This document shows positions 4,241-63,687 of a stretch of DNA of 64,000 nt, in pieces (positions within the stretch are counted from its first letter, which is position 1; each line of letters starts with the position of its first letter). The DNA is from Chthonomonadia bacterium. Lineage in GTDB: Bacteria > Armatimonadota > HRBIN16. The notes below the pieces were generated by a model. It was given only the letters and a program-made list of their open reading frames with translations. It did not search any database and had not been told where the DNA came from. The translations under genes and the position numbers were made by a program. The stretch is from assembly GCA_013314755.1 (NCBI GenBank), contig JABUFA010000021.1, positions 251 through 64,250 of the forward strand, written 5' to 3'.

Positions 4241-5086
4241 TCAGGGGGCGTCGCTGAACTCTTCGGTACTGCAAATCTCCCAGCCGCCGTTTCGCCAGCG
4301 CAGGATGAAACCACGCCCAACCTGCGTAACAGGGGGGCAACTCTGTGCCAGCACGCACACACTGCGGTCGGGCGTACCGAGCGCTACCTGCAGGTTTATG
4401 CCGTCCGAGGTAGACGTGACCTTTCCCGGCGCAAGCCCCTGCCCTGCATACTGCCATAACTGCTCATGGATCAGCGGTGGGAAATCATCTACGGCGGGGA
4501 GGTCGGGCTGATGAAACTGCAGATAAGCCCGCAGAAACCGCGACAAAACCTCCTGCAGAAGCTCGCGCTCCCGGCACAGCAAGTGGCTGACCCTGTCCTC
4601 GCGTGATTCCCAGTACAGGCGGTTGTCAATCTCGTGATGAAGAACGGTATACCATGTCGGTGCGGAAAAGGTGTCGGTCACCAGCGGCTCGATATCCATC
4701 TGCGCCAGCTGGTCGGGCGAGAAGGGCGTATCGGTGAATATCAGGTACGTCTGTGTCAAACGTGCTATATCCTGCACGTGCTGAGCGGGTACCAGCGCGA
4801 ACGAGGAGCGGATAGAGTGCGCCTGCAGCTTCTGCCGGCGGAGCCACTGCGCCAGCGATTGGTTTGGACGCGCCAGCATCTGCTTGTTGCTGAACGACAG
4901 CAGGAGCAGATACCGCCCCTGCAGGTACTCATGCAGAACGTCCGCGCAGAGATACAGAGGCAAAGGCGCAGCGTACAGCGCGTACACATCCTCCTGCTGG
5001 CGAAGATGCACGTGCACCGGCTGACGAAACAGGGGCTTTCCCTCGCCACCAGCAGATGTGTCTGTTCGGTCACGGTCTGTTACCAT
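4241..5086 (-). CDS. hypothetical protein
   Basis: 281-aa ORF with natural composition, own promoter upstream, convergent with the previous gene. Confidence 0.65.
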   Translation of the reverse strand: MVTDRDRTDTSAGGEGKPLFRQPVHVHLRQQEDVYALYAAPLPLYLCADVLHEYLQGRYLLLLSFSNKQMLARPNQSLAQWLRRQKLQAHSIRSSFALVPAQHVQDIARLTQTYLIFTDTPFSPDQLAQMDIEPLVTDTFSAPTWYTVLHHEIDNRLYWESREDRVSHLLCRERELLQEVLSRFLRAYLQFHQPDLPAVDDFPPLIHEQLWQYAGQGLAPGKVTSTSDGINLQVALGTPDRSVCVLAQSCPPVTQVGRGFILRWRNGGWEICSTEEFSDAP

Positions 5087-5191
5087 ACATCACCATGCAC
5101 TCCTTTGGGAAAAGCTTGCAGACTGAAGGTCAGAAGGCGCTGTCCATCTGGAGACACGGTGTTCTGCAGACTCTACGTGGATGGTTGCCTT

Positions 5192-5220
5192 AGTATATCA
5201 GAAATCGCCTACGGTTGCAA
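5192..5220 (-). promoter_or_regulatory. sigma70-type promoter
   Basis: Minus strand TTGCAA-17 bp-TATACT. Confidence 0.6.
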
Positions 5221-5802
5221 TACCCGACGCAATCTCTGCGCGAACTCGCGCGGCGGCTCGTAACCGACCAGCGTGAGGGACTTCAGCCACTCGCCCTGAC
5301 CGTTCAGAAAGGCAACCGTTGGCAACCCTTCCGCGCCGTACTGCTTCGCCAGTTCCGCGGTTTCCGGGGGCAGGTTACTGGAGGTCATATCCACGCGAAA
5401 GACGGCAAACTGCTTCGCCAGGCGTGCCACCTCGCCGTCGGTGAAGGTTTCGCGCTCCAGCCGTCGACAGAACGGGCACCAGTCGGCAGTGAACACCAGT
5501 ATCACCGGCTTGCCCTCTTCAACAGCCTGCTGGATCGCCGACTTGCTGGCGGGTAGCATGTTTACCTCGCCCCTGCCAGCTACCACGCCCGGCTGGGAGA
5601 CCCACAACGCACCAATGATGAACACAATGCCCAGCGTGGCGGTAACGCCTCGCCGACGCAGGAGCAATACTCCCGCCACCCCGAGGCTGACGGTCATCAA
5701 CACCCGAACAACCTCCAGAGGCATCACCTCTCGCGCTGACCAGAAGATGCCAGCGACTCCCAGCAAAATAACAATCGGAAGCCAGAATCCCAGCTTTTGC
5801 AC
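5209..5802 (-). CDS. membrane-anchored thioredoxin-family protein (DsbD-gamma-like)
   Basis: N-terminal TM segments, FTADWCPFC active site, GLPT cis-Pro loop; visibly paralogous to the C-terminus of the adjacent DsbD. Confidence 0.85.
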   Translation of the reverse strand: MQKLGFWLPIVILLGVAGIFWSAREVMPLEVVRVLMTVSLGVAGVLLLRRRGVTATLGIVFIIGALWVSQPGVVAGRGEVNMLPASKSAIQQAVEEGKPVILVFTADWCPFCRRLERETFTDGEVARLAKQFAVFRVDMTSSNLPPETAELAKQYGAEGLPTVAFLNGQGEWLKSLTLVGYEPPREFAQRLRRVLQP

Positions 5803-5817
5803 CTCTTTTATCCTCCT

Positions 5818-7656
5818 CTATCGCTGTGCGGTTTGCGCCGCCGAATGAAATTGCGCCATCCGTTTCAGGAAGGCGTCCGGCGGCTCGAACTGTACCAGGC
5901 GCAGAGACTCTTGCTCGCGCCCGGAGCCGTCCAGAAACACAATGGTCGGCACACCGACGATTTTGAAACGCTCTTTGACCGCCTTCACCGCGGGGTCTTC
6001 GTCGCGGGTCAGGTCCGCTTTGAGGGCAACGACACCTTCAAACGCCTTCGCCACGCGCGGGTCCGAGAAGGTGTTCGCCTCCAGCTCCTTGCACGGCAGG
6101 CACCAGTCGGCGTAGAAGTCAATAACCACCGGCTTGCCCTCCGCAACAGCTTGCTGGAGTATCTCGTCGCTGTAAGGCTGCCATGCGATATGCCCACCCT
6201 GCGCCTTCTGGGAGGGGATGGCTATCATCACCGCCCAGGCGACCAGCGCTACGCCCAGTAACCGCTTGAACAGGAAGAAGGCGCGCACCGACTTCGCCAG
6301 CTTATCAAAAGCGACCAGGTAGATGCCCACTCCCGCCAGGAACGCGAACATCAGCCATCTGTACACCGCCGCGGGCAGGATGGGGCTGAGGAAGAATATC
6401 GCCACGCCAATCAGCGCAAAGCCGAACAGGTGCTCAACGGCGACCATCCACTCGCCGCTGCGCGGCAGGCGACGAATCGCCCCTGAGAACATTGCCAGCA
6501 CAATATAGGGTATGCCCAGACCAATGCCCAGTGTCAGGAACAACAGAAAGCCCAGAGGCACGTTGCCTGTGCCCGATACCACCGCCGCCAGAGCCACCAC
6601 GACAGGCCCCACACATGGCGCCGCCGCCACACCGACCAGCAAGCCCATCATCAGCGCACCCAACCAGCCTTCACGCAGGCGTGCCTTGTTGCGCAGACCG
6701 GCAGGCAACTGCAGCTGATACACGCCGAACATGCTTAACGCCAGCGCCACCAGTATCACTGCGAAGCCACCCAGCACCCACGGATTCTGCAGCTGAAAGC
6801 CGAAGGTCTTGCCCAGTGCCGCCGCCGCCGTGCCCAGCGAGGCATACATTAACGCCATCCCAAACACATAAACCAGCGCCAGCCCGAACGTTCGTCCCGA
6901 GCTGCCCGCAGTCTGCCTGCTGAAGAACGAGATGGTAATCGGAATCAGTGGGTAGACACAGGGGGTCAGGTTGAGCAGAAGCCCCAACAGCAAGATAATC
7001 GGCAGGGCGATGCCGAAACGCCCCTGGTCCAGCAGGTTCTGCAGACGCTGGAGGTACGCTCCGCCCGGCGCGGAAGCGAACGTACCTGTCGCCTGCGGTG
7101 GGCTGGCTGAGGAGGCTTCTTCCACCTGCGCTACCGTCTGCCCCTCGCCCGGTTCCACGCTCGCAGAGGCTTTGCCGACCTTTAACGACAGGGAGAACGG
7201 CAGGTCGCCCGGTGGATAACACGACTTCTCGTCACATGCCTGATAGTTCACTTTACCGCGGATGGTGACCGAACCCGCCTTTAAACTCTTCGCCGGTGTC
7301 GCCACAATGCGAATGACGGTCTTCCCCTCGTAAACGGCTATCTTTTTGCCGCCGGTGAAGGCGAACTCGCGTTGATGCCCCTTTGGATACTGCGGCTGAG
7401 CGAAGGTGATGCCTGCCACCGGCTCCACGCTAACCGTTGTGGGGATGAGGAACTTCTCGCTTGCCGGATTGGCGTTGACGTGGTAAGGCTGTTTGATATT
7501 CAGCGTCACCAGTATCTCGAACGGCTTGCCCGGCACAATCTGCTTCACCGATGCCCCTGCCTGCACGCTCAGAGCATCTTTGGGCGGAGCAAACTGCGCA
7601 AAGACTGCAACAGACAGCAATAGCGCAATGCTTACCACACTGAAAACAGTTCGCAT
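5818..7656 (-). CDS. dsbD: thiol:disulfide interchange protein DsbD
   Basis: Signal peptide, alpha domain YQACDEKSCYPP, TM domain LTPCVYPLIP and APCVGP, gamma domain WCLPC. Start moved to ATG 7656 (GAGG RBS). Confidence 0.92.
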   Translation of the reverse strand: MRTVFSVVSIALLLSVAVFAQFAPPKDALSVQAGASVKQIVPGKPFEILVTLNIKQPYHVNANPASEKFLIPTTVSVEPVAGITFAQPQYPKGHQREFAFTGGKKIAVYEGKTVIRIVATPAKSLKAGSVTIRGKVNYQACDEKSCYPPGDLPFSLSLKVGKASASVEPGEGQTVAQVEEASSASPPQATGTFASAPGGAYLQRLQNLLDQGRFGIALPIILLLGLLLNLTPCVYPLIPITISFFSRQTAGSSGRTFGLALVYVFGMALMYASLGTAAAALGKTFGFQLQNPWVLGGFAVILVALALSMFGVYQLQLPAGLRNKARLREGWLGALMMGLLVGVAAAPCVGPVVVALAAVVSGTGNVPLGFLLFLTLGIGLGIPYIVLAMFSGAIRRLPRSGEWMVAVEHLFGFALIGVAIFFLSPILPAAVYRWLMFAFLAGVGIYLVAFDKLAKSVRAFFLFKRLLGVALVAWAVMIAIPSQKAQGGHIAWQPYSDEILQQAVAEGKPVVIDFYADWCLPCKELEANTFSDPRVAKAFEGVVALKADLTRDEDPAVKAVKERFKIVGVPTIVFLDGSGREQESLRLVQFEPPDAFLKRMAQFHSAAQTAQR

Positions 7657-9577: not shown

Positions 9578-12040
9578 ATGCCTGCTCTGCGAAACGGTTT
9601 CTTCACGGTAGAGCGCCAGCAAACCGCGCTGGTTGACCTGCACTGCGACCCGACGGGCAAAGCCCGCCCCAGCCAGACCTTCTGCCTGAGCCTGATTCCC
9701 GAAGGCTGGGAGTGGACACCTCGCACCGCCGAGCACCAGACCGAAACCGAAGCCACCATCGAGCCGCTGGAGGTCTGGCATCCTGAACCGATACTCCTGC
9801 AGAGCGGCGGCGAGGTGACCTTCCCCGAACGGCTGGAGAAGGGACACACGCTGGCGCAGACCTTCCGCATCGCACCCGGACAGCAGTTTCGCACCGTCGC
9901 CGTACACCTGCCCACATGGCATACCTCCGATTCCGCCTGCACGCTCAGCCTTTTCGCCGGGGACAGACTGCTTGCCTCACGCCGGCTGGAAAACGTCCCC
10001 GATAACTCCTGGCAGTCGCTGACGCTGGACGAACCGCAGGGCGAAGGCGAGTACATCGTGCAGATTTCCGACCCTGAAGGCTCTATCGGCTGGTGGAGCA
10101 GTCAGAAGGACGTATGGGCAGGTGGCACTGCGCTGGTAGACGCTCAGTCGGTGCCGCGCGACCGTGCGCTCCGGGTGGATGTTCGTCGCCGGGTGGGGGA
10201 GGGGCGCCTGCGTTATCGCCTGCAGAGAGAGGTGTTGCATGTGGAGGCGGAACTGCTCTCTGCTTCTGTACCGCCCGCCCCTCTGCAGTGGACATGGAGC
10301 ACCTCATGGACTAAATCGGGCTACGACTGCACGCCACGCGCGGGCGTGGTGTTCAGCCGCTTCTTTACCAGCAATCAGCGCTACATGCCCGTCCAGCAAC
10401 TGAAGCGCCGCGACCATGCTGGACTGTCGTTTGACGGCTGTCAGTGGATTGAGATGGAAGGCACGCGCGACGCCGACCTGCGCATTGAGGGGGAAGCACT
10501 GCACCTGCACTGGGAGATGGAAGAGAAGCGGATGTACCTGCGCCTGCATACACCTTATCAACAGGAGGGAGACCGATGGGGCGTGCGATGGGCGATACGT
10601 ACCCTGCCTCGCGCCGACTCGGTTCCTGCCGACTTTCCACGCTTCCTCTGCCCTCAGCGCAGGCTGCAGGAGGATGTGAACCGCTTCTGGTGGGAGCGAG
10701 CCTTCACCTATCCTTCGCCGGCAGGTCCCGCGGCGTGGTTCGAGTGGATGGCGACTATGCGGTGCTGGTACGACGGCGCACAGCGACAGGGCGAAATGAA
10801 CCAGCTGCGCACCTATCCCATGAGCAAAGAGGGATACGTGCACACCTGGGGTGCGCTGGAAGGCTGGCCCTTCCCGCCCTCGCCACCGTACGACACCCGC
10901 CACTTCGACACGAACGCCCGCTTCATCCTTGCTTGCTGGCGGTTTTATCTGTGGACGGGTGACCGCGAGTTCCTGCGCAGTCAATCCGACCGCCTGCGCC
11001 GCGCCATGGCGTATCAGCTGGAGACGCTGAAAGGACACGAGGGATTAATTATCACCGCCAGCAAGGACGTCACCGGCAGACACAAAGGGGTGGGCAATAA
11101 CTACTGGGACATCCTGCCTTTTGGGCATCTGGACGCCTATGCCAACGCCGTCTACTATGCCAGCATTGACGCCATGCGGGGCATCGACGAGGTTCTGCGC
11201 TTGCGCCCGCTGACCGACTACCATGCCCTTCGCCAGAAGGTACACCGCCGCTACGACGAGGTCTTCTGGGACGAGCGAGCAGGGCGTTATATCGGCTGTG
11301 TGGACGTGGACGGCGTGCGCCACGACTACGGCTTTACCTTTGTGAACCTGGAGGCGCTGTACTACGGGCTGGGCGACGCGCAGAAGGCACGACGCATCTT
11401 CCGCTGGATGGAGACCGAACCCACCTCTACCGGCAAGGCGGATACCTACAGCCGATGGATATTTGCCCCACGCGCCAACACCATCCACAACCCAATGTGG
11501 GGCGATAACGCGCCACCCGAAGAGCGTAACAGCCCTGTTCCCCCGTGGTGGCACTTCGGATGGCACGGCACACCCTATGGCGACCAGTGTCAGGACGGCG
11601 GGGCAATCCTGTATACCTCCTACTTTGACCTGATGGTGCGCCTGCGCTACTTTGGGGCAGAGAACGCCTGGAAGCGGTTCAGCGAAATCCTTGCCCGCTA
11701 CCGAATGCCCGACCGCCTGTGCGGAGGTCCGCCGCTGTATCGCGGGGAGATACCGCAACAGGAGAACCCCGGTCAGGTGGGCGTGGACCTGCCTTTCCCC
11801 GAAAGCGGGCTGGTTCCCTGCTTCCTGCTGTACGGGGTGCTGGGCGTGGAAGCCACTGTAGAGGGGTTACGCATCGCGCCAAAGTTACCCCGAACCCTGC
11901 CCTCTCTGGGCGTGGATGGTGTGAACTACCGGGGGAACCGGCTTCGCATCACCGCCAGCCCGCGCGAGGTGCTGGTGGAGGGTGTCTGGCAGGGCAGGCA
12001 GTTCCGCCGCCGGTTCCCACCAGAAGGGGGGACACTATAG
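9578..12040 (+). CDS. (alpha/alpha)6 six-hairpin glycosidase-like protein
   Basis: DTNARFILACWRFYLWTGDREFL, NNYWDILPFGHLDAYANAVYY and FWDERAGRY resemble GH116/GH78/GH63-type barrels. Start moved to ATG 9578 (GGAGG). Confidence 0.7.
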   Translation: MPALRNGFFTVERQQTALVDLHCDPTGKARPSQTFCLSLIPEGWEWTPRTAEHQTETEATIEPLEVWHPEPILLQSGGEVTFPERLEKGHTLAQTFRIAPGQQFRTVAVHLPTWHTSDSACTLSLFAGDRLLASRRLENVPDNSWQSLTLDEPQGEGEYIVQISDPEGSIGWWSSQKDVWAGGTALVDAQSVPRDRALRVDVRRRVGEGRLRYRLQREVLHVEAELLSASVPPAPLQWTWSTSWTKSGYDCTPRAGVVFSRFFTSNQRYMPVQQLKRRDHAGLSFDGCQWIEMEGTRDADLRIEGEALHLHWEMEEKRMYLRLHTPYQQEGDRWGVRWAIRTLPRADSVPADFPRFLCPQRRLQEDVNRFWWERAFTYPSPAGPAAWFEWMATMRCWYDGAQRQGEMNQLRTYPMSKEGYVHTWGALEGWPFPPSPPYDTRHFDTNARFILACWRFYLWTGDREFLRSQSDRLRRAMAYQLETLKGHEGLIITASKDVTGRHKGVGNNYWDILPFGHLDAYANAVYYASIDAMRGIDEVLRLRPLTDYHALRQKVHRRYDEVFWDERAGRYIGCVDVDGVRHDYGFTFVNLEALYYGLGDAQKARRIFRWMETEPTSTGKADTYSRWIFAPRANTIHNPMWGDNAPPEERNSPVPPWWHFGWHGTPYGDQCQDGGAILYTSYFDLMVRLRYFGAENAWKRFSEILARYRMPDRLCGGPPLYRGEIPQQENPGQVGVDLPFPESGLVPCFLLYGVLGVEATVEGLRIAPKLPRTLPSLGVDGVNYRGNRLRITASPREVLVEGVWQGRQFRRRFPPEGGTL

Positions 12041-57600: not shown

Positions 57601-57717
57601 CTAACCCTGCAACTGGAAGTTGCAGGCTCTGCTGAAGCATGGCTTCAGCACTCCATAAACATGCGCCAGCAGGTTTTGTCCTGTGTAGCCTGCGATTTCC
57701 AATCGCAAGGACACTCT
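57601..57717. repeat. REP/BIME-like palindrome mosaic, copy 3
   Basis: CCTGCAAC-TGGAA-GTTGCAGG, GCTGAAGC-ATG-GCTTCAGC, GTAG-CCTGCGATT-TCC-AATCGCAAGG. Confidence 0.85.
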
Positions 57718-57750: not shown

Positions 57751-57779
57751 TTGACATGTTTTCGTGGTTACTCTATAAT
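57751..57779 (+). promoter_or_regulatory. perfect-consensus sigma70 promoter
   Basis: TTGACA-17 bp-TATAAT. Confidence 0.85.
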
Positions 57780-57810: not shown

Positions 57811-58200
57811 GTGTGCAGAGTAGCGCTGTTTTGCCAGGATGCACCCCTTCTTCAGAAACTGCGCAGTTGTCTGGAGAAAGAAGGCTTTACCGTGTGCATA
57901 CATCCCTGCCAGGCGGAAGCGGTGGCAGTGGTCGATTCGCCCTTAACGCCCGCGCAGGTGGAGGTGTTGCAGGCGTATGTGGAGGCAGGAGACGTGGAGG
58001 AGGTGGCGCGGTTAAGGGGTTGTTCAGCGGAGACAGTTCGGCGTCATCTGGCGGAGGCGCGGCGGCGGGTGGGGGCAAAGAACGTGGCGCAGTTAGTTCA
58101 CATTGCCTGGGCGTTAGGTTTGTTAACCATTGGGTATAACAAAAATTGGTCAAAAAAATGGCAAAAATTTGGTATTGACGCGGGGGGGGGGACGATGTAG
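57811..58200 (+). CDS. LuxR-type HTH regulator with truncated receiver-like N-terminus
   Basis: LTPAQVEVL...EEVARLRGCSAETVRRHLAEARRRVGAKNVAQLV...GLL; this is the 3' part of the supplied ORF 57046..58200; GTG start after GAGGG. Confidence 0.75.
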   Translation: MCRVALFCQDAPLLQKLRSCLEKEGFTVCIHPCQAEAVAVVDSPLTPAQVEVLQAYVEAGDVEEVARLRGCSAETVRRHLAEARRRVGAKNVAQLVHIAWALGLLTIGYNKNWSKKWQKFGIDAGGGTM

Positions 58201-58203
58201 AAT
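58175..58203 (+). promoter_or_regulatory. sigma70 promoter with G10 tract in the spacer
   Basis: TTGACG-C(G)10ACGATG-TAGAAT (17-bp spacer), preceded by three A-tracts near 58140, 58152 and 58163. Confidence 0.75.
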
Positions 58204-58238
58204 AGGGGGTAGAAAACTCAAAAAGGAGGAGGTACCCC

Positions 58239-58652
58239 ATGCAACGTGGTAGCTTCATCTACGCCCTGCTTGTTGCGGCGGTGGCTGTAGCGATTCTGTG
58301 GTACGGGACGCAGGAGGTTGTTGCCTCCAAGGATCCCATTCCTTATTGCCCACCCCCTGTTACGAAGCGGCAAAGTTACTGCAGTAACGATTATTACACG
58401 TGCCGTGACAGCACCTGTACAAATGCAGTTCAGGGGTGCGTGAATCTGCCGTCTTTGACAGTGTGTGGAGGGGTTGGAAGCGGAAAATTCGTTGCCACTC
58501 CGACGAAGCTCTATGTGTGCAAGCCAAGCACGAACCCCAAAGACACCTGCACGGAGTTTGGTCAGGAGTGCGGTCGTTACATTCTCTATGTGCTATCCAA
58601 CTGTAATATGCCCCTCTACGACAGGCCCGGATTTCAAATAACCTGTAGGTGA
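58239..58652 (+). CDS. secreted cysteine-rich small protein
   Basis: Strong RBS AAGGAGGAGG, signal peptide, 11 Cys in about 108 mature residues. Confidence 0.82.
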   Translation: MQRGSFIYALLVAAVAVAILWYGTQEVVASKDPIPYCPPPVTKRQSYCSNDYYTCRDSTCTNAVQGCVNLPSLTVCGGVGSGKFVATPTKLYVCKPSTNPKDTCTEFGQECGRYILYVLSNCNMPLYDRPGFQITCR

Positions 58653-58656
58653 GGAC

Positions 58657-59706
58657 ATGACTGTTTGGCTCAGGATTGCTATCAACATGATGTTGCTGTT
58701 TACACTTTGTGTTGCTGAGGGACAGTCCGCCGTCCCTCAGCCGTCTACACTGCTTGATGCCGCCGAGCAGCTGTATTCCGACTTTACTCAGCACATCCGC
58801 TCGTATAAATTGGAGGGGCAAAAGAAGGTCCGGCTTAGGCTGCGTGACCAGGCAATAGATGCCAATGGCCAGTGGCAGCCATGGCAGGAAACTGCCCGAT
58901 GGCGCGTTTGGCGGCATAAGAACCTTTTCATCTGGGATTGCACCAGGAGCGACGGGCAGCGAACCGTTTATAGCTTCGACGGTAAGCGCTACTATTGCTA
59001 CACCGGTTGGTCATCATCTGGCGTTATTCAAAACGCGCAATCATTGCGTCAAACAGACCTGCCGCCGTGCCAGAATAATTTTTACGACATATACCCATTT
59101 GATGTGGCTCACCTCCTGCAGTCTCCGCTAGCAGGGGGAAGCTGGCTCACTGAAGAACCGTTTTATTCCACCCTGCGCCGGTCGTTTCTGTCTTCTCTTG
59201 AAGTTGTACGTGCTAGCCCTTCGTCGCTGACATACACGTTGCGAATAAAGCCCTCAGGTCGCCTCGTCAAAACATCGGAACATCTACCGGGCGAGATCGT
59301 CTTCCAGCTAGACAGAGACCGCTTTCTTCCTGTCAAGATGTTATTGAGAATTGGCGAGCAGGAAGAGATGGAATACCGAGTTGTCTCATCACAGTGGTTT
59401 GGCACCTGCTGGGTGCCAACGGAAGTAAGCATCATCGCGCGAAGGGCAACACCGTCTGGAAAGAAAGCCGATATTGCAGAAACGCGCATCAGTTTGCGAG
59501 TACACGACGTCAATCAAAATATCCCGCCACAGGCTTTCCAGTTCGAGTTTCCTGCTGGAACACGCCTGACTGACGAAACCGGCGGCGAGTCCATTGTCGG
59601 CGTGCGATGGCTGCGCATTTTCATAGGTGTCAGCGTTGTGGTGCTGATAATGCTACTGGCAGGCATCTTGTTGCGGCGTTGGCTTGGCGTGGGGAGGAAA
59701 CAATGA
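58657..59706 (+). CDS. exported protein, LolA/RseB-like fold, with C-terminal TM anchor
   Basis: Signal peptide, beta-rich body, VNQNIPPQAFQFEFPAGT, then a hydrophobic helix followed by RRWLG. Confidence 0.65.
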   Translation: MTVWLRIAINMMLLFTLCVAEGQSAVPQPSTLLDAAEQLYSDFTQHIRSYKLEGQKKVRLRLRDQAIDANGQWQPWQETARWRVWRHKNLFIWDCTRSDGQRTVYSFDGKRYYCYTGWSSSGVIQNAQSLRQTDLPPCQNNFYDIYPFDVAHLLQSPLAGGSWLTEEPFYSTLRRSFLSSLEVVRASPSSLTYTLRIKPSGRLVKTSEHLPGEIVFQLDRDRFLPVKMLLRIGEQEEMEYRVVSSQWFGTCWVPTEVSIIARRATPSGKKADIAETRISLRVHDVNQNIPPQAFQFEFPAGTRLTDETGGESIVGVRWLRIFIGVSVVVLIMLLAGILLRRWLGVGRKQ

Positions 59707-60722
59707 ACCGTACACCTCCACGGCTGATTTATCTCCTGCTCGGAGTTGCGTTAGCATGTCTGATAGGGCTAATGTTTGTGACACGACCTGTAATGTCGCC
59801 TGATACTGCTCCAAGGATACGGGTTTTCCGCCTGCGTTTTGTTCCTCAGCGGTGGGTTTTGCCTACGGATATTGCAAGGCTCCATCGCACTAAGGTGCGA
59901 TTGTGCAACGATTCCGAAAAAGATATTACAGTTGATGTGGATACTTGCTGCGATGTGTCTGTAGAACCGAATCACAACATACGTGTACCATCCCGAAGAT
60001 GTGTCACCTTGCATCTGACCAGCCAGCCTACCGCAGACAGGAACTATCGCGGAGCCATCTTTGTGCGCGCCCGGGGTACGCAATCGCCCGTGGCTATGTT
60101 GCCCATTCTTGGAGACGTACGCGAAAGTATCCTATCATCGCCTACCCGCACGATTTCACTCCCAGCTCTGGTTAGAAAAAGCCCCGATACCTCCAGTAAA
60201 GTTGTCTGTGCCGCGCTGGCAGTTGACCCACCCTTTGAGGTGGTGGGATTGACGGCTGCGGCTACTTGGCTACAGGTGTGGTACCAACATCAAGACACCC
60301 AGACAGTTCTCTATGCTCAGTCTCTACCGTACGCTCGAGAGGGTGAATTTCGGGTTCCCCTTGTGGTTCGCTACCGTACACAACCGGGGCGGACAGGAGA
60401 GGACATCCTCACATTGGAAGGAGAAATTACCTCCATGGTACAGGTTCACCCTGAAAGGCTCTTTTTCGGTGTTCTGCAGCATGGAAAGCACGTGGCGGCG
60501 AAAGGGCTGACGATTCGCTCGAGGATGTATCAGAACAAGCCGGTCTCCGTTCGGCTCGACTGCCCTCTGTTCTCCGCCAATGTCCGACAAAGTGCTCCAG
60601 ATGCGTGGCAGGTAACAGTATCTTTTTCGCCTCTTCGCAAAGGCGAGATTACAGGTGAACTACGAGCCTATGTGGATGGGCAGTTGCTATGCAAGGTGCC
60701 GCTTTCCGCTTACGTTCAATAA
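59703..60722 (+). CDS. membrane-anchored Ig-like repeat protein (DUF1573/ASH-like)
   Basis: N-terminal TM; LCNDSEKDITVDVDTCCDVSV resembles the DUF1573 N...SCGC motif; VHPERLFFG starts another Ig-like module. Confidence 0.6.
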   Translation: MNRTPPRLIYLLLGVALACLIGLMFVTRPVMSPDTAPRIRVFRLRFVPQRWVLPTDIARLHRTKVRLCNDSEKDITVDVDTCCDVSVEPNHNIRVPSRRCVTLHLTSQPTADRNYRGAIFVRARGTQSPVAMLPILGDVRESILSSPTRTISLPALVRKSPDTSSKVVCAALAVDPPFEVVGLTAAATWLQVWYQHQDTQTVLYAQSLPYAREGEFRVPLVVRYRTQPGRTGEDILTLEGEITSMVQVHPERLFFGVLQHGKHVAAKGLTIRSRMYQNKPVSVRLDCPLFSANVRQSAPDAWQVTVSFSPLRKGEITGELRAYVDGQLLCKVPLSAYVQ

Positions 60723-62641
60723 CAGGTAGACGCACTGCAATCGCTGCAGCTGGATGGCTATGCTTTGTGGCAGTGCAACTCTTGTGGCTATATCCTTCCT
60801 CTGTTTTTTCCAAGATGACTTTGGCCGAGCTGTCTTTTATCGGTCAGGAGCTGGCTGGCAGCTACATCTCTTATTTCTTGCTGTGGTTTTGTGCGCTCGC
60901 CCAAGCGCTGCTCGTGCTTCGGGTCGTTGGACAAAACGCCACGAGGGAAATGGCGTCCCTGCTGTTGTTGTTTCCCTTATTGCTCATCTGGGATGCACTG
61001 TTCTCTCTGTATCCGGGCTATCCGGTGGAGCGAGTGAACCTACTGCTGTTGTCGTGGAACAGCGCGATAGTGTGCTTTTTGCTGATGAGACACCTCCGCG
61101 TGGGATGCATTGCTCAAGCAATCCCAACAGCCGTTGTGGGTTTAGAAACAGTAACCTCTCTACTGGAGTGGAATCCGCAGGATCGGCTCAGTGGCGGTTT
61201 TGGAAACCCATTGTTCTTCTATCCGCTGCTGGTGTATGGACTGGCGATTGCAGCGTCGGGGGCTGTAAGCACACCAACGCTTGTTGGGCAAGTTGGCTGG
61301 TCGGTGTTGGCGATTGTCTTTTCCGTCGGCTTGGTTGCTAACGCAACCCGTGCTGGTATTATCGCATGTGCTGTCGTTGTCATTTACTTGATCTACAACG
61401 CAGTGTGGGGTAGACTGGACGTGCGCCATCCACGACCGGTGATTGTAACGCTTCTGCTGGTTGGTATACTTCTCATGGTTGGCTGGCACCGACGCGCGGA
61501 ACTCGCCAACACTACGCTTACCCAAGAACGTTCGGCGTTGTCCCGTCCCGTACTCTGGTGGGCGGGGTGGCGCGTGACATTAGCAACACACGGACTGGGA
61601 TGCGGATTGGAGAATTACGCTAATGCTCAGAGCCAGCTAACTGAACTCATTCTACTAAAACAGTCCATGATGCCCAATGAGCCCCATCATCTTTTTCTGG
61701 GGATGCTTGCAATCTATGGCACCGGCGGACTATTGTACCTCTGCTACTTTCTATCCGCATCTTGGAAGCTGTCGTCCAATAGGTGCGGGAACTTGCGAAT
61801 TGCAGGGCGCGCTATCCTGCTGGCAACAATTGTCATGGGCATGTCGGATACGGTGCTATTCATTCCCCAACAAGCACGGGCTACCTTTTTCTTCCTGCAG
61901 TGGTGGTTCTTTGCACTGATTCCAGCCACTGAATCAGCGACCAGCCAGAACCGTGCTCCTCTTCCGTCCAAACATCTGCGTCTCTTCATGAAGCTGACCG
62001 CATTGGTATTTCTTATGGCAGCTGCTGGAGTGATGTACACCTACTCAGCAGTTGCTCCTTATCGTTCGCGATTGGACTTATTGGAGAGAAGACATGTTCT
62101 CCCCCTGTCCCACTATCCACCTGAGATGATACGGATGCTGATCGCACGCGAGGATCGAAATTTCTATTCGCACCGCGGAGTGGATTGGCGAGGGGTGCAC
62201 CGAGCACTTCGGGCTAATTTGAGAACCCTGAGATACGCACAGGGCGGAAGCACAATTACTCAGCAAATGGTGCGTGTCTTGGTTCTGGATCCAGCGATAG
62301 CCAAACGAAAAAGCATCTTACGAAAAATGGTAGAAATGTGGCTGGCAATAGAGGCCGAACGACGCCTCAGTAAGACAAGGATTTTGGAATTGTATCTGCC
62401 GACGGTCATCGAACCGCTTGACCTGCTGAGTAGCAGCGAAAAGGATGTTGCCCGTCTGTCTGTCGCAGAGATGGCCACGTTTGTCGGCTGGCTTCCTGTA
62501 TCTCTTCAGAGCGAGGTCGATTTTGCCCGCACAGTGGCTCTCCGAAATGCTGTTCTTTCCGCGTTAGACGAACAGCGCGCTGTCACATATTCATTGGCAC
62601 CGCTACAGATAGTTGCTCCGTGCCAATGTGGAGTACGGTGA
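60689..62641 (+). CDS. O-antigen ligase-like (Wzy_C) domain fused to a GT51 transglycosylase domain
   Basis: RLSGGFGNP, TRAG, SRPVLW, GLGCGLENY, PHHLFLGML..YG..G, then EDRNFYSHRG, QGGSTITQQ, RKMVE, KTRILELYL. Start uncertain. Confidence 0.8.
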   Translation: MQGAAFRLRSITGRRTAIAAAGWLCFVAVQLLWLYPSSVFSKMTLAELSFIGQELAGSYISYFLLWFCALAQALLVLRVVGQNATREMASLLLLFPLLLIWDALFSLYPGYPVERVNLLLLSWNSAIVCFLLMRHLRVGCIAQAIPTAVVGLETVTSLLEWNPQDRLSGGFGNPLFFYPLLVYGLAIAASGAVSTPTLVGQVGWSVLAIVFSVGLVANATRAGIIACAVVVIYLIYNAVWGRLDVRHPRPVIVTLLLVGILLMVGWHRRAELANTTLTQERSALSRPVLWWAGWRVTLATHGLGCGLENYANAQSQLTELILLKQSMMPNEPHHLFLGMLAIYGTGGLLYLCYFLSASWKLSSNRCGNLRIAGRAILLATIVMGMSDTVLFIPQQARATFFFLQWWFFALIPATESATSQNRAPLPSKHLRLFMKLTALVFLMAAAGVMYTYSAVAPYRSRLDLLERRHVLPLSHYPPEMIRMLIAREDRNFYSHRGVDWRGVHRALRANLRTLRYAQGGSTITQQMVRVLVLDPAIAKRKSILRKMVEMWLAIEAERRLSKTRILELYLPTVIEPLDLLSSSEKDVARLSVAEMATFVGWLPVSLQSEVDFARTVALRNAVLSALDEQRAVTYSLAPLQIVAPCQCGVR

Positions 62642-63687
62642 TGACGCGACGATTATCTCATAGATACCTTGTGGCAGCTTTGTTACTGGCTACGCTTGTC
62701 GCGCACTATACTGTGACGATGCAACAGGAGCAGTCTCCCTCTCCAAATGAACCTCTCTCGCGGTATCTGACATGCGTGGTGGATGATACGCAATATTCCC
62801 CCAAACCTAAGCTTGTGGCAATATGGTGGATTCAGTCGTGCAGTCAGTTTACAGATGTGGTGCAGATACCTGTGCGAATGCTGGTACGCTTTGATGTTTT
62901 CAGTAAGCCCGTGACGCTAGAAAGCCTGTATGACAACGGTGAGCTTGCCAGAACCTTGCCTTCTGTACTTATCTACAGCCTTGGTCTGCCAGTTCCCCAA
63001 ATTACCTTCTGTTCACTGCGAGACTTACTCAGCTCGCGAGCTTTGCAGTATCCAGTTACCCTGTTCTTGGACGAAGCTTACACAGTGTTCACCGAAACCT
63101 ATACTGTGGCCTTTCACACGGGCACTTTCAAAGCTGGCGAAGAAGAAATTCGCCACCTTTTGTCTGGTTACACGTTGTTTGGAGGCGAATGGTCACGCAT
63201 GTGGCGACAAAGAACAGTGCTGCGGAGTTTGCTCGACCGTGTGCACCAGCTGCCGCCAGGATGGGAATGGCTCCGTCTACTGCAAAAGAGGAAGGTGCAG
63301 TTTCATGTGCCTCCATGTACGCGTCCCGTCGGATGGAAAGGTGGATTGGAAGGCGACTATCTGTTCCTGGTTCCTGGCGGCTTTTCTGCTAAAGCCCTTG
63401 AACTGCGAAAAAGAGACGCTCGCTTTCTGACACGTGTTTCGCTTTGCTTTGACATGGACGTCGCACCTCCGGTACGCCAGCAGATAGTGGAACAGGTTTT
63501 TAACGAAGGATATTCCGTCTCTATCGCAATCGGGAATCAGCAGTGTGAGCAGTCATTTGATTTGCCTGACGAAGTTGGGCGGGTTACAAGGAGACTTCAA
63601 CATATTCTGAGCCAACATAAATTGACAGTCGAGCCGTTTTTGCGGAATCGCACGCTGATACTAACCATTCATAAAGAAGGAGGCTAA
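62641..63687 (+). CDS. membrane-anchored hypothetical protein, possible degenerate thioredoxin-like fold
   Basis: ATG overlaps the previous TGA; N-terminal TM; KLVAIWWIQSCSQF and YPVTLFLDE resemble TlpA-type motifs. Confidence 0.6.
   Translation: MTRRLSHRYLVAALLLATLVAHYTVTMQQEQSPSPNEPLSRYLTCVVDDTQYSPKPKLVAIWWIQSCSQFTDVVQIPVRMLVRFDVFSKPVTLESLYDNGELARTLPSVLIYSLGLPVPQITFCSLRDLLSSRALQYPVTLFLDEAYTVFTETYTVAFHTGTFKAGEEEIRHLLSGYTLFGGEWSRMWRQRTVLRSLLDRVHQLPPGWEWLRLLQKRKVQFHVPPCTRPVGWKGGLEGDYLFLVPGGFSAKALELRKRDARFLTRVSLCFDMDVAPPVRQQIVEQVFNEGYSVSIAIGNQQCEQSFDLPDEVGRVTRRLQHILSQHKLTVEPFLRNRTLILTIHKEGG

Follow-up and report, generated by a model that had tools for sequence, protein, structure and literature searches.

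Within the window, the stretch of 64,000 nucleotides that was analysed, a small gene encoding a LuxR/GerE-type helix-turn-helix (HTH) regulator of 129 amino acids without a receiver domain (57811–58200, GTG start, TAG stop) is followed by a predicted five-gene envelope operon (58239–63687), and the last 30 codons of the regulator gene overlap the putative promoter of that operon; all features of the window named here are on the plus strand. This promoter comprises a -35 hexamer TTGACG (58175–58180), recognised both by reading the sequence and by a promoter consensus scan of the window, a 17-nt spacer read as C, G10 and ACGATG (58181–58197), and a -10 hexamer TAGAAT (58198–58203), and TTGACG-17-TAGAAT has 10 of 12 matches to the consensus. 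On re-reading, the combination of hexamers, 17-bp spacer and G run described in the initial annotation proved exact, and the run itself (58182–58191), a hypermutable element that ranges from G7 to G11 among the unique copies of this promoter, is indeed the longest homopolymer in the window, the runner-up being two runs of 7. The homopolymer lies between recognisable -35 and -10 elements of the promoter of the presumably controlled gene. Upstream, the three A-tracts that had been placed 11–12 bp apart are present as A5, A7 and A5 (58141–58145, 58152–58158 and 58163–58167, roughly -70 to -43) that begin at intervals of exactly 11 bp; they may act as an UP-like element or bend the DNA, or possibly form a set of direct repeats, three copies of CAAAAAWWTGG, to which an activator would bind. 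An extended -10 element (TGn) was rejected because TG abuts TAGAAT directly, one position off. Transcription would begin near 58210–58211, giving a predicted short leader (58204–58238) that contains a strong Shine-Dalgarno sequence (SD), GGAGGAGG (58225–58232), and the promoter stands 36 nt ahead of the operon, which starts with ATG.

The regulator gene has its own sigma-70-type promoter, TTGACA-17-TATAAT (57751–57779), with 12 of 12 consensus matches, and the same perfect promoter is found before paralogous LuxR copies at the 3' end of contig C4 and the 5' end of contig C74, while TTGACA-17 promoters also precede LuxR genes in the genome G008 of the same genus. Assignment of the product to the LuxR/GerE family is supported by a match to Pfam GerE (PF00196) over residues 44–99, with 31.2 bits against a cut-off of 23.5 and an E value of 1.7e-7, and the gene is conserved across the genus. 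The LuxR copy with which the contig of the window begins (C74:1–340) is apparently one C short (CCC vs CCCC). Just upstream of the LuxR promoter (window 57603–57713) lies a hairpin-containing repeat of about 81–110 nt, of which more than 150 dispersed copies, often in tandem, occur genome-wide. The three 11-bp-phased CAAAAAWWTGG repeats beside the -35 hexamer are, as a guess by analogy, a candidate LuxR site. A scan of the window for a terminator-like site between the LuxR gene and the cassette found none; since the LuxR gene has a perfect promoter of its own, read-through could blunt an off state, and the cassette may never be fully off.

Regarding the genes downstream, the ORFs of the operon are arranged with overlaps or with gaps of a few nt and are predicted to encode a secreted mini-protein with 11 cysteines (gene 1, 58239–58652), a membrane-anchored protein (58657–59706), a third product (59607–60722), a fusion of an O-antigen-ligase-like Wzy_C domain with a peptidoglycan transglycosylase (60689–62641, Pfam Wzy_C and Transgly) and a fifth product (62620–63687). 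The presence of signal-peptide proteins together with the Wzy_C/Transgly fusion predicts a surface or envelope target. In the genome that contains the window (G000), paralogous cassettes stand behind the same promoter on contigs C15 and C19; the Wzy_C/Transgly fusion is found in all three cassettes, and their gene-1 products are only 28% identical (E = 4e-11). The final 228 nt of C15 and C19 form a transglycosylase-domain segment that is 97% identical, and both contigs begin in the shared LuxR/promoter module. Diverged cassettes between two conserved flanks represent a layout that would allow exchange by recombination.

The LuxR-plus-promoter module ahead of these three diverged cassettes is 95–98% identical. 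A similarity search of 61 Armatimonadota genomes detected the module in seven of the 13 genomes of the genus and in none of the 48 outside it, with one to five tract-bearing copies per carrier genome; further copies came from pattern scans of metagenome contigs and GTDB genomes, for a total of 57 copies, 46 of them unique. Among the unique copies, the tract is pure G7 in one, G8 in nine, G9 in 18, G10 in eight and G11 in four, and it is interrupted in six. TAGAAT is present in 56 of the 57 copies, and both hexamers are conserved in 56–57 of them. Similarly, across the 19 similarity-derived copies TTGAC is invariant (100%) and TAGAAT about 100% conserved, the two promoter-proximal A-tracts are nearly invariant (they also persist in copies whose LuxR ORF is a mere remnant), and non-G bases within the tract number 0 of 172, with about 23% non-consensus bases in the flanks. 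The reading of this site as a promoter is well supported by the -35 and -10 hexamers being the most conserved positions of the module. Both hexamers, the A-tracts nearest to them and the uninterrupted run of G's stand out as conserved islands, the pattern expected of a promoter with a selected slippery spacer.

The possibility that the C15 and C19 copies are strain variants of the window locus was rejected, because three LuxR copies have different upstream flanks and because in G008, an assembly of 7 contigs, five separate sites have a tract-bearing copy, two of the copies being arranged in tandem. Promoter copies inside one genome are homogenised by recombination and are therefore not independent observations. 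A fourth copy in the genome of the window (L020, C12:4504–4563) has identical A-tracts and -35 hexamer, a purine-rich spacer of 18 nt from which the G run is absent, and the -10 hexamer TACAAT; apparently a decayed, fixed version, it is followed by genes for another Cys-rich protein and a prepilin-like product.

Comparison of the same loci in different assemblies reveals variation in the length of the tract. Between C15 of the window's genome and a metagenome contig (L038), 3479 nt were aligned with 0 mismatches and a single gap of 2 nt, corresponding to G9 vs G11, and the comparison with a MAG contig (L063) gave the same result; at another locus, 6337 nt of L028 and L030 were aligned with 0 mismatches and a single gap of 1 nt (G10 vs G9). 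The ortholog of the window locus in another MAG (L075) has G9, and the close relatives G004 and G008 have G10 and G11, respectively, at one locus. Altogether, the tract differs, in length or by interruption, in nine of the 12 locus groups that are represented by more than one sequence version, with combinations of G8/G9/G11, G9/G10 or G10/G11 among assemblies of one locus. The tract-length check that the initial annotation had proposed for related assemblies therefore shows that the length is not invariant, and at two loci it is the sole difference over 3.5 kb and 6.3 kb. Tract lengths that differ within identical flanks of 3.5–6.3 kb indicate a rate of tract indels orders of magnitude above the substitution rate, and this combination of identical flanks and differing tract is the localised hypermutability of a promoter-spacer contingency locus. 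Some length calls from metagenomic consensus sequences could be assembler choices among mixed reads, in which case heterogeneity would still be implied.

Regarding the consequences for the promoter, the spacer measures n + 7 nt, so that G7–G11 correspond to 14–18 nt. The six alleles in which a point substitution interrupts, and thereby locks, the tract have a spacer of 16 nt (four alleles) or 17 nt (two), and since all fall on these two values, 16 and 17 nt are read as working spacings; G9 and G10 would accordingly represent on or high states, and G7, G8 and G11 weak, low or off states. The modal state is G9 with its 16-nt spacer (18 of the 40 pure tracts) and not the canonical 17 nt, and genomes with several copies usually have zero to two with the canonical spacing. 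With spacers spread over 14–18 nt, a graded 'dimmer' is as likely as a strict on/off switch.

Tracts of the same kind occur in other genes of this genome and of the genus. In RHS-repeat genes (DUF6531 plus RHS repeats), a G tract directly follows the conserved signal peptide (MLRRFPF/YxR...), with G10 at C38:8597–8606, G8 at C18:30309–30316 and G8 at C50:106249–106256 / C65:14–21 in the genome of the window; each of these copies misses the reading frame by a single base, G9 being the length that would restore it. In the genus as a whole, RHS tracts of 6, 7, 8, 8, 8, 8, 9, 10, 10, 10, 10 and 13 were recorded, in addition to interrupted copies, and only the G6 copy reads through in frame. Three assembly contigs end at or inside an RHS tract, which is compatible with heterogeneous reads there. 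A pair of genes for secreted TPR proteins similarly has the tract after the signal peptide (C5:126410–126419, G10; C21:11767–11774, G8), one member having a base too many and the other a base too few relative to the in-frame G9. Tracts placed after the start or signal peptide, with both in-frame and out-of-frame copies, are the arrangement of 5'-coding poly-G contingency genes. A second promoter family of the form TTGACAAAAGCAA-G(n)-TAGAAT, in which the G tract abuts the -10 hexamer, was detected at C5:96624–96632 (G9, spacer 16) and C27:238–245 (G8, spacer 15) before a secreted protein of 512 amino acids without a Pfam match; it was found only in the species of the window (G000) and, weakly, in its nearest relative (G003). 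Two further tracts, C32:2136–2145 (G10) and C48:24041–24049 (G9), lie beside genes that, judged by eye only, resemble those for sigma factors or anti-sigma factors; the former, located behind a transmembrane segment, would need G9 to be in frame, and the latter is in frame within an ORF of 509 amino acids.

On this evidence the G10 tract is probably a functional element of a slippage-tuned promoter, that is, a promoter-spacer contingency locus of the porA/opc/fim type, and the candidate phase-variation switch suggested in the initial annotation gains support from the conservation of the hexamers together with the tract-length polymorphism between assemblies. In the mechanism proposed, a sigma-A promoter with a slipped-strand contingency tract in its spacer would drive a cassette that belongs to a paralogous set for envelope glycan or cell wall; slippage during replication would add or remove G's, the distance between -35 and -10 would change and with it the strength of the promoter. 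We infer that transcription starts here, that expression depends on n and that switching is reversible within a lineage. Near-identical modules, each comprising the LuxR gene, A-tracts, -35, G(n) and -10, precede different versions of the cassette, one to five per carrier genome, and if several of them are switchable, cells of one population would differ in the set of envelope variants they express, plausibly as bet-hedging against phages or competitors.

The alternative that the G run is static promoter architecture, either a rigid G/C spacer or a protein-binding site, with length differences due to near-neutral drift or assembly noise and no adaptive switching, is unlikely. For a genome of 3.95 Mb with a G+C fraction of 0.598 (59.8%), arithmetic from size and composition under an i.i.d. 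model gives an expectation of about 33 G/C runs of at least 10, and 4 were observed; long runs are depleted genome-wide, and from base composition G10 is by itself unremarkable. What is above chance is its context, namely the occurrence at the same site in 57 copies of the genus, the purity in 40 of 46 unique copies and the invariant hexamers on either side. The genome contains 21 G/C runs of at least 8, most of which belong to paralogous families whose copies differ in tract length, those of the window's promoter family being G10, G9 and G9. In about half of the runs of at least 8, the next two bases are TA (G(n)TA), whether the run is in a promoter or in a coding region.

Static architecture would be consistent with the dominance of G9 among the pure tracts, with loci of constant length across assemblies (8/8/8, 10/10, 9/9) and with the presence of mismatch repair, MutS1 being intact in all 13 genomes of the genus and exceeding the family cut-off in 12. 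Missing mismatch repair as the cause of slippage was rejected on the same grounds. Long G runs are moreover common in other Armatimonadota genomes, and runs of G9 or longer are not enriched in the genus relative to these in a GGGGGGGGG pattern count over the 61 genomes, the counts being inflated by overlapping matches and by poly-G at contig ends and hence uninformative. With MutS1 intact and long G runs no commoner than elsewhere in the phylum, the case for switching rests on the position and polymorphism of the tract and not on abundance. It is in these respects that a static spacer fails to account for the data: the tract changes where kilobases of flanking sequence remain identical, the range of 14–18 nt is too wide for a fixed architecture, the interrupted alleles converge on 16–17 nt, and the coding tracts of the same genome are one base off the in-frame length, as is typical of contingency loci.

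A second alternative, which is quite unlikely, accepts that the tract is hypermutable and places its real target in the LuxR gene, either by phase variation of the C-terminus or by translational coupling with gene 1. The overlap of gene and promoter has the consequence that the tract is read as GGG GGG GGG, encoding three glycines, and that the TAG of the -10 box serves as the LuxR stop codon. In each of the 35 unique loci, LuxR ends on this TAG when n = 1 mod 3; for n = 2 mod 3, its stop is located 5 nt further on (11 nt in two of the 35 unique loci); and with n = 0 mod 3, LuxR reads across the SD and is in frame with gene 1 in 16 of 35 unique loci. The corresponding tails are ...GGGTM* for G10, ...GGDDVE* for G8 and G11, and an extended one for G9. 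The proposal in the initial annotation that slippage would also change the LuxR C-terminus is therefore correct at the level of sequence, where a tract near the 3' end of a coding sequence is found at which slippage alters the C-terminus only. Two in-frame fusions of LuxR to the Cys-rich gene-1 ORF by G9 are seen in L099 (G008:C3:118000–137000, at 4999–5970 and 9979–10887); the fused open frames are 302–323 amino acids long and involve both tandem modules of this near-complete genome, and a fusion is also present in G000:C19.

Such a role for the tail would fit the three-frame behaviour, the consensus promoter of the LuxR gene and the lack of a terminator before the cassette, and for Helicobacter canadensis it has been proposed that homopolymers at the 3' end of genes switch C-termini (PMC2823697). 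The share of loci in frame with gene 1 also exceeds the third or so expected by chance, but this excess is weak and comes from loci that do not count as independent. Invariance coincides exactly with the promoter hexamers, and the tail falls outside the fold, since the GerE domain extends only to residue 99 of 129. Pure tracts and intact hexamers persist behind LuxR copies that are dead: L005 and L016 have an in-frame nonsense codon inside the HTH, L016, L019, L021, L028 and L053 have frameshifts or deletions near codon 30, and L018 and L007 retain LuxR remnants of only 45 and 21 codons, one remnant with an internal stop codon. A pure tract kept behind a dead gene indicates that the tract is maintained for the promoter and not for the LuxR tail, and the C-terminal change is probably an incidental by-product of the overlap between gene and promoter. 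The LuxR coding tail was likewise rejected as the reason for the conservation of the A-tracts and -35 hexamer, as copies with a truncated or pseudogenised LuxR still have this block. A second slippery site behind the recurrent LuxR frameshifts near codon 30 was also considered and rejected, because no homopolymer is present there and the changes are ordinary indels. Intact LuxR copies may act in trans.

A more elaborate reading combines these elements, making the one homopolymer a three-state device that couples the regulator to its target, with mutually exclusive cassettes and a genus-wide phasome, and as a whole it is very improbable. A short LuxR, terminating at the -10 box or shortly beyond it, would result from n = 1 or 2 mod 3; in the commonest class (n = 0 mod 3), LuxR would extend across the SD and in about half of the loci be fused to the gene-1 signal peptide, giving a membrane-tethered, ToxR-like HTH protein; combined with the effect on the spacer, paralogous envelope cassettes would be expressed in a mutually exclusive manner, in a free-living bacterium whose poly-G phasome would also gate RHS toxins. 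The remaining alternative, that the block is not a promoter at all and owes its conservation to being the 3' part of the LuxR coding sequence, or else an element, acting as RNA or in recombination, that shuffles cassettes between LuxR and transglycosylase flanks, is exceedingly improbable: the module and the 228-nt 3' segment are near-identical between paralogous loci around highly diverged cassettes, as gene conversion would produce, but the best-conserved positions are a canonical -35 and -10 at 14–18 nt immediately preceding an SD and ATG, the block is retained even next to LuxR remnants of 21–45 codons (one with an internal stop), and recombination of the flanks is compatible with the block also being a promoter.

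If the spacer tract is a promoter switch as preferred here, it points to stochastic diversification of surface and weapons, probably driven by phages or neighbours. It would also provide a handle on the unannotated WaaL-like/transglycosylase cassettes, the expression state of which could be read from tract length in metagenomic reads. Several genes that appear 'frameshifted' are probably switchable and not dead, and annotators of these MAGs should therefore regard tract length as a property that varies within the population.

Phase variation driven by repeats is well established in host-adapted pathogens. In Neisseria meningitidis, the promoter spacers of porA (poly-G) and of opc and fetA (poly-C) contain tracts of about 8–11, slippage of which changes promoter strength in steps. 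The locus described here resembles porA, opc and fetA in having a G/C homopolymer between the -35 and -10 of a sigma-70-type promoter ahead of a predicted surface component. It differs in that the organism is an uncultured member of the Armatimonadota and not a host-adapted pathogen, in that one genome may have the module in front of as many as five cassette paralogs, and in that the tract lies inside the 3' end of the upstream regulator gene.

The fim2, fim3 and fimX promoters of Bordetella pertussis have a poly-C tract between the -10 and the site for BvgA, a response regulator that is encoded elsewhere. Shared with this system are the several paralogous surface loci, each with a G/C tract in its promoter, and a LuxR/FixJ-type HTH protein with phased upstream sites beside the -35 region, which are candidate sites whose role is suggested by analogy. 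A GerE protein is encoded upstream and three 11-bp-phased repeats abut the -35, but here the -35 has a full TTGAC and many of the LuxR genes are pseudogenes; in contrast to BvgA, this LuxR lacks a receiver domain and is encoded immediately upstream of each promoter.

Bacteroides fragilis has multiple capsular polysaccharide loci with invertible promoters, a recombinase and a locus-specific regulator as the first gene. The Armatimonadota modules are similar in that several diverged envelope-glycan loci each have their own putative promoter switch and a locus-specific regulator, while the switch here would be a homopolymer, and neither an invertase nor inverted repeats were seen.

Campylobacter and Helicobacter lack MutS1/MutL repair, whereas mutS1 is intact here, and the targets in the present genus include RHS toxins and the WaaL-like/transglycosylase cassettes. 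The poly-G 'phasomes' of Campylobacter and Helicobacter comprise many G/C tracts of 8–13 (PMC6321876, PMC8355987). As in these phasomes, tracts are located in promoters or close behind the start or signal peptide in genes for surface and secreted products, their lengths differ between strains and many copies are out of frame. The effect on the LuxR tail matches the C-terminal type proposed for Helicobacter canadensis and is here probably a by-product, given that the tract is kept behind dead LuxR genes. In a literature search, neither phase variation nor homopolymeric switching was found to have been described for Armatimonadota. The mechanism itself is not new; features of interest in the present case, which comes from an environmental bacterium, are the repeated regulator-plus-promoter module, the stop codon supplied by the -10 box and the companion poly-G gates predicted on RHS toxins.
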